Source: Eledone cirrhosa (taxonomy: Eukaryota). Taken from it: a stretch of 64,000 nt of DNA. Every line of letters starts with the position of its first letter. Position 1 is the stretch's first letter. Made by a program: the position numbers and the translations under genes. This document shows, one piece after another, positions 487-62,825 of this stretch. Where the stretch lies: positions 89,342,001 through 89,406,000 of the forward strand of contig OZ024744.1 in assembly GCA_964016885.1 (NCBI GenBank), read 5' to 3'. The notes under the pieces are model-generated. The model had not been told where the DNA came from. It saw only the letters and a program-made list of their open reading frames with translations, and ran no database searches.

Positions 487-630
487 ATGAAAAATATGGG
501 AAGAAGGCTACTGCGTGGTTGCACATGGGTTACATATTATAAAATTAGTCCCTCATCAGTGATTTTCCAACCGTCATTAATTTTTAATGCGATGAAATAC
601 CAAATCACTGATGAGGGACTAATTTTATTA
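487..630. mobile_element. Small PLE-like fold-back between (TA)n tracts
   Basis: 27-bp inverted arms 539-565/602-628 (AAATCACTGATGAGGGACTAATTTTAT). Related single-arm copy at ~44360-44448. CTGATGA present but no GAAA partner recognised. Confidence 0.55.
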
Positions 631-681
631 TATATATATATATATATATATATATATATATATATATATATATATATATAT

Positions 682-1431
682 ATTAAGAGAGTAAAACAAA
701 GAATCCTTTAATACATCAAAAGTTTTTATTAGCCGACAATGTTTCGTCCTATTAAGGACTCATCAGGGCAATCAAAACAACAAGAGGTAATTTCGGCAGA
801 TACAAGCCAGAAACTCTGAAGAATATGGAGTGTACATACACTAATGTCTTGCAAAGATATACGATAATAAAATGAAAATAAAGATAAAAATAATAAAATT
901 ATAATAACTAAGGATGTAGATAACATTAAGAACCATATTACAAATATAGTCCAAAGCATATTGGTATAAATATATTATTATTATAATGTATTATATTGTG
1001 TTATATATAATTCCTGCTCTATATAACCAAATTTGTTTAGATTTAAGTTGGTGGCTTTGGACTATATTTGTAATATGGTTCTTAATGTTATCTACATCCT
1101 TAGTTATTATAATTTTATTATTTTTATCTTTATTTTCATTTTTATTATCGTATATCTTTGCAAGACATTAGTGTATGTACACTCCATATTCTTCAGAGTT
1201 TCTGGCTTGTATCTGCCGAAATTACCTCTTGTTGTTTTGATTGCCCTGATGAGTCCTTAATAGGACGAAACATTGTCGGCTAATAAAAACTTTTGATGTA
1301 TTAAAGGATTCTTTGTTTTACTCTCTTAATTTTTTGGCTCTGTTTAACTGCATTGAGCTATACCTTTTACTGTCATTTCTATAATACGAAGAGGGTGTTT
1401 GACTCAAACACGCTCCAGTATTCTAATCCTT
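682..1431 (+). mobile_element. Non-coding fold-back PLE (pLTR-only) element with hammerhead ribozyme
   Basis: Inverted arms 682-957/1054-1330 (~276 bp, one indel seen), ~96-bp spacer, ~100-bp unique tail, (TA)n on both sides. Confidence 0.8.
1243..1280 (+). ncRNA. Type I minimal hammerhead ribozyme (mirror copy 732-769 on minus strand)
   Basis: GCC-CTGATGA-GTCCT taat AGGAC-GAAA-C att G-TC^GGC: full core, 5-bp stem II, stem I GCC/GGC. Confidence 0.88.
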
Positions 1432-1448
1432 ATATATATATATATATA

Positions 1449-1567
1449 ACTTCTATCGTAAATCATTGAATGCATCTTCTCTTTTCATGATATCTTCTAT
1501 ATTTGGATTGCATTGAGTTCTTCATACGGATTGGACACTACCGTATATTTTGGTAGACTTATCTACA
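1449..1567 (+). mobile_element. Isolated tail fragment of the 59454-60020 fold-back family
   Basis: Shares CATTGAGTTCTTCATACGGATTGGACACTACCGTA...TTATCTACATATA with ~59960-60020. Confidence 0.65.
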
Positions 1568-1589
1568 TATATATATATACTTCTATGTA

Positions 1590-1925
1590 TCTCTCTTTCA
1601 CCTCTCTCATTTCCCTCTCACTTCATCGTCTCTCAGTCTCTCTGTCTCAATCTTTCCGTCTCTGTTTGTCTCTCTCTTCTGTCTCTCTCTCTCTCTCATC
1701 TTCTCCCTCACCCTCCTCCTCTCTCTTTCTCTCTCACACTCTCTCTCCATCTCTCATTTTCACCCTCTCTCTCTCCATCTCTCATTTTCACCCTCTCTCT
1801 CTCTCCGTCTCTCTCTTTTTCGTCTCTTTCTCTCTCTTTCTCTCTCTTTCTCTCTCTCTCTCTCTGATACCCTCTATTTGCCTCTCCTTCTCCACCCCAC
1901 CCCCTCTCTCTCCCTTTGTCCCCAT
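1590..1925. repeat. (CT)n-rich low-complexity tract
   Basis: Degenerate CT dinucleotide run. Confidence 0.9.
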
Positions 1926-2309
1926 CATTTCGCTTTTTCGCATACACACATTCATATAACTGACAAAAACGAAAAAATCAACAACAAAAAAACAAAAAAG
2001 CAAAACAAAATAAAACAAAACAAAAAACATAATATTACGAATGAAACAATAAAACACACACCAAAAAAAAAACGTTAATGGATTTGAAAGGAGGTTTTAA
2101 ATTTTTAGTAATTTCCGGTGAGATTAAAGTTCTAGAGTTTGTAATTGTTTGTAAATTGTCTAAGTCTTTAGTGAAAAGCTTGCCACTAAGGTGTATCTTT
2201 TCTGATAATTGTGGTGCCGATTAGACATGCAAGAATACGTTTAATGAGTAATTCTTCAGCAATTTTTGCCTTCAAAAACCATTTTAGAGTATGGGAAAGC
2301 TTGAATTGT

Positions 2310-2545
2310 TTTGTTTTTATATTTATATTTACATGTATATTTATATTTTTATTTTTATTTTTATTTTTATTTTTATTTTTATTTTTATTTTTATTTTTTT
2401 ATTTTTTATTTTTATTTTTATTTTTATTTTTATTTTTATTTTTATTTTTATTTTTATTTTTATTTTTATTTTTATTTTTATTTTTATTTTTATTTTTATT
2501 TTTATTTTTATTTTTATTTTTATTTTTATTTTTATTTTTATTTAT
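2310..2545. repeat. (TTTTTA)n microsatellite
   Basis: Hexamer run seen directly. Confidence 0.95.
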
Positions 2546-2594
2546 CAAGTTATGTTTTTCTTAATGTTTATTTATTCCGTTCTATGACTTAGTA

Positions 2595-60020: not shown

Positions 60021-60040
60021 ATATATATATATATATATAT

Positions 60041-60438
60041 TTCGTTTCTGAATTTGTTTAACAAGATTCTTTATCTGAATACCTGTGTTGAAACCAATAT
60101 TGTTATGCTTTGGGAGGGTCATGTTGCCAATAAGAAACACACGCACCAGTTGCTTTCACTTCAATTTGATTTTGTGCCTCTCCTTTGTTCTGCCCTACGG
60201 GACAGAACAAAAGAGAGGCACAAAAACAAAGAAAAGAATCCCCAGTCACTGAAGAGGTCACAGAATGTGTGACGAAAGAACTTTGACAATATATCAACAA
60301 TCGTATGGTTGTGGAACCAACCAACCGGAAATTTATAAATTCCTAAATTTATAAATTTAATTTATAATAAATTGAAGTGAAAGCAACTGGTGCATGTGTT
60401 TCTTATTGGCAACATGACCCACCCAAAGTATAACAATA
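60041..60438. mobile_element. Fold-back PLE (57513 family) with deleted left arm; HHR 60245-60287 (+)
   Basis: GTCA-CTGAAGA-G-GTCAC agaatgt GTGAC-GAAA-GAAC-TT^TGAC; outer arms ~60097-60167/60368-60438. Confidence 0.8.
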
Positions 60439-60796
60439 TATATATATATATATATATATATATATATATATATATATATATATATATATATATATATATA
60501 TATATATATATATATATATATATACATACATATAAATAATATGGGTAATATTACAATTACAAGTGTGAGAATAGCTTCATGTAAAATAACAAATATAATA
60601 CAGAGCCGGAATACTTTATAAATAACAACCAAACTGTGTTTATATATATATATATATATATATATATATGCAGAAGTATATATATATATATATGTGTGTG
60701 TGTGTGTGTGTGTGTGTGTGTGTGTGTGTGTGTGTGTGTGTGTGTGTGTGTGTGTGTGTGTGTGTGTGTGTGTGTGTGTGTGTGTGTGTGTGTGTG

Positions 60797-61010
60797 TGTG
60801 TGAGGAACCTGCGAATCCAGAGTCAGGTTAGATCCACACACAGATCGAAACTCGACCCGTTCGCCGGGGAAACAATTGTAACACGTAATAAATTGAGTTC
60901 CGATGCATCACTGATTCTTCGTTTTCCATTTTATCATGCTCTGCTCCGTAGAAGCATAGAGTACTCAACCGGCATACCGCCTATGGATGCATCTTAGCTA
61001 CCATAAGACG
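60797..61010 (+). mobile_element. pLTR fragment whose HHR 5' end merges into (GT)n
   Basis: (GT)n-GTGAGGA-..GCGAA..TTCGC..-GAAA-CAATTG-TA^ACACG. Confidence 0.55.
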
Positions 61011-61053
61011 TATATATATATATATATATATATATATATATATATATATATAT

Positions 61054-61400
61054 ATATTGAAAGAGTGAAGAATAACATGGTCAAAAGTACAAAAAAGAGT
61101 TTTATTTACAGACTTAACAATTGTTTCACTGATTAAGTTGTCTAAAAATTGCTGAACACTCAATTTTAAATGCGTTAAGACTGTAAATGAAACCCTTTTT
61201 TGTACCGTTGACCATGTTATTCTTCACTCTTTCAATATTATTACTCCAAGATAAACTTACATAGGAATGCAAGAGAAATCATAAACTCGCCACCTACGGA
61301 AACCTCGTGTTGAGTCAAACAACGCCGTACGCTAAAACTATCCACAATACGAAGTATTCACAACCTCTAACTGGATTAACTATAACGATATTTTGTTATC
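61054..61400 (+). mobile_element. Fold-back PLE retaining only the HHR 3' half
   Basis: Arms 61054-61118/61174-61238; minus strand GAAA-CAATTG-TT^AAG. Confidence 0.65.
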
Positions 61401-61758
61401 CCTTTTATATATATATATATTTACATATATAAGACACACACACACACACACACACACACACACACACACACACACACACACACATCATCATCATCATCAT
61501 CATCATCATCATCATCACCATCATCATCATCATCATCATCATCATCATCATCGTCGTCATCATCGTTTAACGTTCATCTTACCCCTTTGCATGGGTTTGG
61601 ACGGGAATTTTACCCACTTGAGGCAAGATTGGATGTCCTGCTCGTATAGGACTGTCTGGCGGGTTTTCTACGGCTGGATGCCGTATATATATATATATAT
61701 ATATATATATATATATATATATATATATATATATATATATATGTATATATATATATAT

Positions 61759-61985
61759 ATATCAACTAGAAATTGATTGACATATAAATATATCTAAAAT
61801 AAACATATGAAACAATCACAGGGGATTGCTTCATATGTTTATTTTAGATATATTTATATGTCAATCAATTTCTAGTTGATATAAAATGCTCGGATCTATT
61901 CATTAGAATCTCTGAGCATATTTTACAGGTGATATGGCGCAGGTCTTTCTGACATGACACCCTTAATTTAACTTAATTTTGGATA
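61759..61985 (+). mobile_element. Short fold-back, family of 46643-47190
   Basis: ~58-bp arms around CACAGGGG, then the shared tail. Confidence 0.7.
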
Positions 61986-61996
61986 TATATATATAT

Positions 61997-62825
61997 AATG
62001 AATAAAGTTAATATATCTGAGGGTACAAGGTACCCCTAGAAATACATAGATTGTCTATGATTCAAGGTGGTTCTATGGTAATAATTTGATATACCAGAAC
62101 TTAATATCAAGATAAGCAGAACAAGTAAAATTCAACCAATTTTTCAAAATAAATCAAAATTAATTTACAATTAAAATTAATCAAAATTTAAAAATATAAT
62201 ATAAATATTTACCTATTCAAATGGCCCTTACTGTACAGTTTCACTTTGCAAAACATTAGATATCACATGGATATTAATGGAAAAACAAAGATCATCAGAG
62301 AAGCATTTTCCTTTCCTAGGGTTAAAAACCTCAGGAACGATAAAATATATGACCTCGTCTCCAACTGACACAGGTCTGAAAGGTCGTAAAAGTGACCCGT
62401 ATGTACGCTGGTGTGAAGTGAAGGCGGGAAATCGTAGACTTGTTGTCTATAGTCGCCACTAAAAAAATTAGCAGCTAGATAGAACGACAGATTTGTTCTC
62501 TACATAACGGAGAATAATGAATAAAGTTAATATATCTGAGGGTACAAGGTACCCCTAGAAATACATAGGTTGTCTATGATTCAAGGTGGTTCTATGGTAA
62601 TAATTTGATATACCAGAACTTAATATGAAGATAAGCAGAACAAGTAAAATTCAACCAATTTTTCAAAATCTAATGTTTTTCAAAGTGAAACTGTACAGTA
62701 AGGGCCATTTGAACAGGTAAATATTTATATTATATTTTTTAATTTTGATTAATTTTAATTGTAAATTAATTTTGATTTATTTTGAAAAATTGGTTGAATT
62801 TTACTTGTTCTGCTTATCTTGATAT
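61997..62825. mobile_element. PLE-like element with direct (61997-62150/62516-62670) and inverted (~62104-62251/62679-62825) repeats
   Basis: Repeats seen directly; (TA)n flanks; CTGA-GGGTAC aag GTACCC-cta-GAAA motif. Confidence 0.6.

Follow-up and report, generated by a model that had tools for sequence, protein, structure and literature searches.

Short hairpin insertions in the TA repeats of the Eledone cirrhosa genome: common sequences, seven families of which continue into Penelope-like reverse transcriptase genes

Penelope-like elements (PLEs) with an endonuclease (EN+) are described as leaving complex insertions, composed of an inverted 5'-truncated copy, a pseudo-long terminal repeat (pLTR) and a tail, and the passages dealing with these elements also report microsatellite targets and hammerhead ribozymes within the pLTRs (PMC3846280, PMC8557442). 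How PLEs make the inverted structures is treated as an open question (PMC8557442). According to the biochemical account of PAc, the Poseidon protein of Anolis carolinensis, both strands of AT-rich DNA are nicked and extended in vitro, with starts at two internal sites bounding the tail and a need for RNA downstream of both; the protein is a predicted dimer, and hammerhead cleavage is not required (PMC11167929). Tandem hammerhead retrozymes are a second related system, for which a link to PLEs has been proposed, their mobilisation by PLEs being argued from co-occurrence and pLTR similarity (PMC7229834; bioRxiv 10.64898/2026.07.22.740005); the enzyme that moves animal retrozymes is presented as an open matter, with PLEs named as a candidate (PMC7229834). 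As regards the main texts, the word 'tail' is absent from the bioRxiv report (10.64898/2026.07.22.740005) and the word 'inverted' from PMC7229834, and the repeat-annotation text of an octopus study names PLEs, not palindromes or hairpins (PMC13282606). In this work, we analysed 64,000 nucleotides (nt) of Eledone cirrhosa DNA (assembly GCA_964016885.1, contig OZ024744.1, positions 89,342,001 to 89,406,000, forward strand; hereafter the window), in which a sequence-only reading had listed 14 short, non-coding fold-back elements sharing one layout within (TA)n runs.

An inverted repeat was found at all 14 listed starts, exactly or a few bases off, and a fifteenth fold-back lies at 61998-62821; lengths reach about 820 nt, and the arms are 78-100% complementary. 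The layout, i.e., (TA)n, inverted arm, centre, arm, tail and (TA)n, was recovered at 11 places of the window by a TA-anchored detector, which misses four of the window's fold-backs. It holds with exceptions: the element with arms at 9272-9402 has just (TA)3 on its tail-less side, the one at 46643 is interrupted by a (TA)/(GT) run, and the one at 45631 has its family tail on the left, inside a partial tandem, with 29 final nt of non-family sequence on the right. Any target-site duplication is hidden, the insertions lying within (TA)n. At least 11 families were counted (A/A2, B, C, D, E, F, G, H, I, J and K) where at least eight had been proposed, and the density, put earlier at roughly one per 5 kb, came to one per 4.3 kb in the window.

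The scale was estimated from a genome sample of 40 evenly spaced 10-kb pieces taken from 14 contigs (400 kb of the 3.0-Gb assembly). The TA-anchored detector returned 30 tailed fold-backs in 17 of the 40 pieces, covering 11,904 bases; 14 of them belong to window families, and one (L135:8795) is a probable microsatellite false positive. This corresponds to 75 per Mb and 3% of bases (Poisson interval 51-107, too narrow since matches clump), or an extrapolated genome-wide number of about 225,000, and the window, with 11 in 64 kb vs 30 in 400 kb, is about twice as dense. Of the 74 inverted repeats in the same sample, 45 are bordered by a TA run on at least one outer side, vs about 7 expected at a chance frequency of 0.048 per end, and the association is therefore not due to chance. 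This TA-at-end test replaced a random-anchor control of the detector (30 matches in 200 kb), which was discarded as uninformative because random anchors land inside real arms.

The arms of older copies differ by 4-9%, every family searched is present again at all 40 loci scored for it, these being the 40 best by identity, and arm-end/(TA)n junctions together with many different joints are present in the contigs of three public runs, which represent one sample, possibly the same one as the assembly. These observations indicate that the fold-backs are not an assembly artefact at the family level, a point for which raw reads had been proposed as the check; the window's own centres are spanned by no contig of the three runs. 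Short hairpin insertions in TA repeats are thus real and extremely common across the Eledone cirrhosa genome. Identical fold-backs in duplicated flanks (L247/L248, L064/L065 and L249/L260), of segmental or haplotype origin, are not separate insertions, and same-place repeats (L065, L239, L246, L248, L251, L260 and L301-type) were dropped before counts.

Seven families (A, B, C, D, E, H and I) continue into open reading frames (ORFs) for reverse transcriptase (RT) and GIY-YIG endonuclease, in agreement with the proposal that the fold-backs derive from PLEs, consist of pLTR sequence and target (TA)n. Family A extends upstream via the 3' untranslated region (UTR) into GIY-YIG and RT coding sequence, and at L096 its arm and tail stand at both ends of a 3.64-kb unit, the upstream tail continuing into the ORF; the tail likewise continues into the ORF in families C and H. 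Family C is young, identity being 100% over 206 nt at all 40 scored loci; 5 of 30 copies run on into the ORF, and L282 and L283 hold 915 uninterrupted codons (RT plus GIY-YIG) with the arm at both ends, as a pLTR partial tandem. Family H is also young and has an uninterrupted 831-codon frame at L284. For B, D, E and I, endonuclease coding sequence lies on the same strand 260-1,100 nt upstream of the arm end: about 450 nt in longer B copies, 259 nt (GIY-YIG) in D at L223, about 900 nt (GIY-YIG) in the E parent, and GIY-YIG upstream of I at L341 and L347. Families A, B, D, E and I are linked to their parents through broken ORFs. Families A, B, C, D, E, H and I account for nine of the 14 elements listed, which are accordingly pLTR-plus-tail ends of ORF-bearing PLEs; the tenth, A2, is a relative of A (about 68% similar) placed among PLEs by that likeness only, and F and G supply three more.

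Regarding the proteins, the predicted structure of the H protein (pLDDT, a model confidence score, of 83) has telomerase RTs as its seven best matches, and the nearest Atlas clusters carry GIY-YIG, HTH_animal and RVT_1. A profile search on the intact ORFs gave one weak retron RT match (E 0.002), a PDB sequence search on them returned nothing passing, and Pfam gave a weak RVT_1 match in one of five window ORF remnants. The endonucleases of families other than B have no CX4CxxC finger, and these families presumably resemble Penelope/Poseidon. The family B endonuclease has this finger, which is given for Neptune and Nematis (PMC8557442). Downstream of a family H copy, L225 contains a 496-amino-acid (aa) open frame for a Neptune-like PLE RT that is close to the family B ORF of the window, a lead to an intact family B parent. 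At L164, L170 and L180, GTAACT...TTTTATCTGACAG comes directly after the family C tail, with an ATG beyond it; this may be a short intron, the donor of which would coincide with the outer start site.

The sequence-only reading had suggested that the fold-back itself propagates, and this was not supported. A query with the whole family A element is present at 40 of 40 scored loci (the best 40 of 4,482 candidates), with fixed outer ends in most of the 30 A loci among the matches listed; nevertheless, 16 different centres were found in the 18 parsed copies (12 of 30 centres were unparsed), and in family C the centre differs in all four fold-backs. Many copies have no inverted arm. When the tail or the arm end was the sole basis of selection, inverted arms were seen in 15/30 copies of A, 19/30 of B, 13/25 of H, 22/25 of E and 4/31 of C; the remaining tail-selected A copies (15/30) and C copies (27/31) have none within 1.5 kb. 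In 67 fold-backs, the inverted arm is longer in 13, the direct arm in 16, and both are similar in 38. A unique inversion point in every copy had been named as the mark of one-off truncated insertions of autonomous PLEs, and the differing centres and ORF-bearing parents largely agree with that description; recurrence of an identical centre at several loci, the mark of a propagating class, was seen at a few unlinked loci of H, E and A, centres being otherwise mostly copy-specific.

The two arms of a copy nevertheless share their variants. In family A, divergence is 3.8% between the arms of one copy vs 5.8% to other copies' arms, and 61 mirrored variants were counted in 30 copies vs 13.2±3.5 with permuted arm partners; the corresponding values are 10 vs 0.9 in H, 16 vs 4.4 in E, 38 vs 13.5 in B and 6 vs 1.1 in J, and 4 vs 0.9 in C, where n = 4 and the result is weak, the permutation maximum being equal to the observed count (L090, L194, L197 and L206 were left out of these counts by family). 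Of the variants shared over 435 A pairs, 54 are mirrored, 2 are confined to the tail-less arm and 8 to the tail-side arm. Three A copies with one centre carry three different mirrored subtypes, and mirrored private variants are also found in family H, for which the selected copies show 100% identity over 219 nt. Centres often contain short patches copied from nearby sequence, or T runs, as end joining would leave. Taken together, the varied centres, the excess length of either arm and the mirrored variants suggest that the hairpin is rebuilt at each insertion; it is best read as likely remade every time from one template, rather than as the spreading unit.

Arm ends were measured against long natural copies, relative to one initiator-like A, which lies in TCACTAT, TCATTAT or TTAGTCC; an Inr-like (initiator-like) TCACT has been noted in a rotifer pLTR (PMC3846280). 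Within -3 to +25 of this base, 19, 17 and 45 ends were found in A, H and E, respectively, vs 0 in each family over the 29 nt upstream, i.e., 81 pooled arm ends just downstream and none just upstream. Arm length is often constant because the ends pile up at this base, a feature that mimics a fixed class. From its position, the edge fits run-off at an RNA 5' end, with priming at the upstream pLTR of an uncleaved transcript. Other origins were rejected: a hammerhead cut lies inside the arm in A and H, no core was found in the 470 nt upstream of the fixed 5' end of E (L194), and a small-circle junction at the family A tip is incompatible with the run of A upstream into its 3' UTR and ORF. For family B this statistic is void, the motif being absent from the reference, and arm lengths alone were used; in family B (L061-L090), the 5' ends of the arms concentrate some 245-265 nt from the arm end, immediately ahead of AAGATGGCG, a sequence that we take to resemble a YY1 site.

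The reading that we favour, and consider probable, is that the hairpins are insertion products of PLE RT/GIY-YIG proteins, each likely rebuilt from one single-stranded RNA and not copied from an older hairpin. In the hairpins, the inverted arm begins at a fixed inner site and the tail ends at a fixed outer site. The PLE protein would nick both strands of the self-complementary (TA)n target, and two cDNAs would start inside the RNA, one at the tail end (outer site) and one at the arm end (inner site), by analogy with PAc in vitro. With priming at the upstream pLTR of an uncleaved transcript, both cDNAs would run off the RNA 5' end after 60-220 nt, and their 3' ends would be joined head to head with short overlaps or templated patches. 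Short copies, which end at the start site, would likely lack the downstream RNA that the protein needs and thus be dead ends. The family A tail is predicted to pair with downstream RNA that these short copies (minis) lack. Furthermore, 10 of 24 families have a hairpin RCTC...GAGY near the start of the tail, vs a mean of 0.47 and a maximum of 3 in shuffles (a post hoc motif). These families are A, A2, C, E, G and five sample families, and the hairpin may mark the inner start site.

Several observations weigh against this interpretation. The scored loci are those of highest identity and not random copies. Pfam gives no passing match on the two intact ORFs and finds GIY-YIG in just 1 of 44 aligned relatives, and no tail run-on copy was seen in 47 E and 18 I tail ends. 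The RNA 5' end is deduced from DNA only; the resemblance of the three pile-up motifs to an initiator was judged by eye, against a consensus that we assume; a cap-derived G is found at 12 of 41 run-off ends, which is no excess; a query with family A listed no RNA record, which speaks neither for nor against; and family C has no arm-end pile-up. The same centre occurs at unlinked loci in H (L226/L233), E (L188/L193/L201) and three A copies; in the H and E groups the flanks differ and the centres coincide with the pile-up point, which allows few different joints; the shared E centres use a GTAC overlap. The tails are also longer than the 30-40 nt in print (50-171 nt). Finally, self-copying of a folded cDNA (snap-back) with central deletion would be expected to leave mirrored variants just as well, and it can also make the two arms unequal.

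Under that snap-back route, which we regard as possible though rather unlikely, parents and dead-end products would be the same, and one cDNA reaching from the tail end to the RNA 5' end would fold, copy itself, and stop or be cut at the inner site, part of the centre of the unstable perfect palindrome being lost afterwards. It explains mirrored variants directly, central deletion of long palindromes is well established, arms from different subtypes are almost absent, and three of six GTAC-type E fold-backs have perfect centres at the GTAC palindrome; self-priming has moreover been proposed for rotifer Penelopes (PMC3846280). However, it needs a reason to stop at the inner site, which PAc uses as a start on both strands, and long copies exist that terminate at this site and carry the tail on their inverted side. 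It would also need prompt deletion, given that in very young families the inverted arm holds sequence absent from the direct arm (600 vs 352 nt at C L163; also at H L213, L216 and L234).

That whole fold-backs, or short pLTR-plus-tail RNAs from them, serve as templates and spread non-autonomously seems to us very improbable. The whole A element at 40 of 40 scored loci speaks for it, as do 45 of 47 E arm ends at one point, the many E subtypes known here mainly as minis among the copies listed, and the few identical centres at unlinked loci; however, the whole-A query selects for full-length similarity, tail-selected sets contain 13-88% fold-backs with varied centres, one-arm variants are rarely shared, and minis are without the RNA downstream of the start site that PAc needs. 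We see next to no chance that these are TA-targeting miniature inverted-repeat (MITE) or foldback DNA transposons, or that their symmetry arose by gene conversion after insertion. Long inverted repeats in TA runs do resemble TA-targeting MITEs, and gene conversion could add some mirrored variants in old copies, yet the 50-171-nt tail outside the repeats at one end means that the termini are not inverted repeats, centres and arm lengths vary by copy with no fixed interior, seven families are ends of RT-encoding elements, and mirrored private variants are already present in young H copies.

The suggestion of a retrozyme-like non-autonomous class fared differently according to the unit considered: it stands for F, G and J, which consist of ORF-less tandem units (with hammerheads in F and J), and is not supported for the fold-back as a unit. 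The unit of family F measures 467 nt and occurs in arrays of at most three; its type I hammerhead is canonical and intact in L295 (the window copy has GTAA for GAAA), and its copies end at unit positions 395 or 469, inverted copies mostly at 395. Family J is a 519-nt tandem unit whose tail continues about 260 nt back into the arm; copies reach 1.5 units or more and stop at one of two places, the arm end or the tail end; 11 of 20 non-duplicate loci contain an inverted arm, and the hammerhead is complete, with T.T as the first pair of stem II. About 77% similar to J is an array at L105:1-3344 of around seven near-identical 481-nt units with an intact type I hammerhead, a clean retrozyme array ending in a tail and (TA)n. 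Family G has a unit of about 545 nt in partial tandem (L324, L328, L330), and no intact hammerhead was found in it. The longest M-started frames are 73 aa in F, 61 aa in J and 29 aa in G, and all three families have TA targets and two fixed 3' ends, of which the inner is the place where inverted copies begin. Their spreading unit is the tandem monomer, the hairpin being merely one insertion form, whereas in A, B, C, D, E, H and I the unit is a multi-kb ORF-bearing element, so these are not retrozyme units. From their sequence anatomy, F and J are likely retrozymes, and the three gene-less families likely borrow a PLE enzyme to move, i.e., they would act in trans on the same protein, keeping the downstream RNA because their unit is a tandem or a circle.

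A further scheme, which we find doubtful and on balance unlikely, would add SINE-like PLE parasites (after short interspersed nuclear elements) to the PLE-moved retrozymes F, G and J. In it, the shortest minis, such as the 138-nt ones of family E, would be transcribed from their own pLTR initiator and re-mobilised in trans, stored as a hairpin, spreading as one arm plus tail and rebuilt at each jump; a dimeric, double-priming enzyme would act on two RNAs paired through the palindromic stem III of the hammerhead.

Most of the 14 listed elements do carry a whole or partial hammerhead, as had been noticed: seven are complete or nearly so, three are partial or mutated, and in four none was found. 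The 682 element matches Rfam RF00163 at 31.7 bits (E 6e-4), under the gathering score of 34; those at 10302, 44495, 53726 and 59454 were recognized by descriptor (background of 0.03 matches per 8,006 shuffled nt); by eye, those at 57513 and 60041 were judged complete or near-complete, and those at 9276, 45630 and 61054 partial or mutated. No hammerhead was found in the elements at 487, 30352, 46643 and 61759. Among PLE families, the motif is complete or near-complete in A, A2, B, C, H and I parents and variant in D, whose longer copies have a hammerhead-like core with CAGAAGA; the type I motif was not found in family E or K. The family H hammerhead (59677-59810) has a 116-nt stem II region, which is also long in I and J, and its stem I 5' strand begins at the putative RNA 5' end. 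Rfam matches on the hairpins are mostly microRNA models below threshold, and such hairpins are easily mislabelled as microRNAs or MITEs.

Along the window, the family K fold-back (489-628, minus strand) has arms at 539-565 and 602-628 plus a core and a 50-nt tail at 489-538; its parent was not found in our searches, and it has no complete hammerhead. The family C fold-back (684-1430, plus) has arms at 684-957 and 1054-1328, a 102-nt tail, and a type I hammerhead core at 1246 with its mirror at 766. Family D is represented by a fold-back at 9185-9402 (minus; arms 9272-9402, tail 9185-9271) and by a tail-less arm without an inverted partner at 30147-30279 (minus). Two family A fold-backs lie on the plus strand, at 10300-10736 (arms 10302-10639, 95-nt tail, hammerhead core at 10544 with an 8-bp stem I and palindromic stem III) and at 44495-44916 (arms 44495-44833, 83-nt tail, cores at 44737 and 44592), and the A2 fold-back on the minus strand at 53726-54125 (arms 53816-54125, 90-nt tail, cores at 53914 and 54027); a solo A-like arm at 56860-56987 (plus) ends at (TA)n, with a core at 56897 and a 12-bp stem I. 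The family E fold-back (30355-30512, plus) has 39-nt arms, an 80-nt tail and no hammerhead. Family F occupies 45631-46368 (minus), as a partial tandem at 45631-46140 plus an inverted copy at 46146-46368, and family G has a microsatellite-split fold-back at 46639-47189 (plus) and another at 61763-61982 (plus) with 58-nt arms and a 104-nt tail.

Two family B fold-backs are on the minus strand, at 57515-58238 (arms 57573-58238, 58-nt tail, hammerhead-like core at 57767) and at 60041-60435 (another turn point, tail-side arm deleted, 60-nt tail); a second, 30-nt inverted repeat (57320-57348/58447-58475) encloses the first of them together with its microsatellites. A family B-related, tail-less pLTR at 34921-35293 (plus) abuts (TA)n with its inner-start-site end, and another such pLTR terminates a decayed PLE at 51700-53684 (plus), whose RT remnants are partly inverted and whose GIY-YIG with a CX4CxxC finger lies at 52648-53070. 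A C-terminal PLE RT remnant at 55074-55502 (plus) resembles the family A/C/H ORFs. The family H fold-back (59457-60018, plus) has 212-nt arms that are 99.3% complementary, a 137-nt tail and a hammerhead core at 59677; that of family I (61058-61405, plus) has a 171-nt tail and the 3' half of a hammerhead; and family J (61998-62821, minus) comprises 1.2 units plus an inverted arm at 62668-62821, with a core at 62298. In the region 59400-62900, five fold-backs of H, B, I, G and J are stacked via successive (TA)n runs, and insertions appear to seed targets for later ones.

Other repeats of the window include an element at 30535-32166 with 212-bp terminal inverted repeats and broken transposase frames, which we take to be Tc1/mariner-like; a minus-strand long interspersed nuclear element at 20947-26377, presumably L1/Tx1-like, in which an ORF precedes an uninterrupted 1,150-aa endonuclease-RT frame; two broken non-LTR elements at 15152-20580 with C-terminal restriction-like endonuclease motifs, presumably R4/Dong-like; SINE copies at 7636-8360, 11194-11834, 27188-27801 and 49450-49645, several as inverted pairs, which we assume to resemble octopus SINEs; and a fragment at 9393-9746 presumably related to a PIF1-type helicase and hence Helitron-like.

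The layout of these insertions is known; the present work adds their scale, support from genomic copies for priming on two strands, and a link in sequence anatomy between retrozymes and PLE enzymes. A literature search that took in few subscription journals and did not include Repbase gave no account of pLTR-only fold-backs at such scale, nor any of a run-off edge or of retrozymes bearing PLE tails. The genome supplies short products by the tens of thousands, the young families C and H with uninterrupted ORFs, and retrozymes with the two-start signature of PLEs, which make both literature questions, i.e., how inverted structures arise and which enzyme moves animal retrozymes, testable with the PAc assay. 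In addition, wherever introns or UTRs cross them, near-perfect hairpins 90-800 bp long would supply much double-stranded RNA, with a probable bearing on RNA editing and small RNAs.

Compared with described EN+ PLE insertions, those studied here share the inverted beside the direct copy, the tail at one end, a hammerhead motif in the pLTR of several families, the microsatellite targets, the single RT plus GIY-YIG ORF and the partial tandems, and they differ in that most copies contain no ORF sequence, in tails of 50-171 vs 30-40 nt, in the one-base pile-up and in a density of about 75 per Mb. With PAc they would have in common the extension of both strands, two internal tail-bounding starts, the AT-rich target and an uncleaved RNA template; the PAc work is a biochemical study, whose account leaves inverted copies unexplained, whereas the present elements are known as genomic products alone. 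Twin priming of L1 elements uses primers from both target strands and yields an inverted insertion with a copy-specific joint; its two pieces cover different parts of the RNA, whereas here they overlap fully and start at two fixed sites. Finally, F and J resemble the metazoan non-LTR retrozymes in that their tandem units lack ORFs and contain a type I hammerhead motif, although described units measure 150-450 nt vs 467-545 nt here and G has no intact hammerhead, and, unlike the described retrozymes, F, G and J show a PLE tail, two fixed 3' ends and inverted copies.

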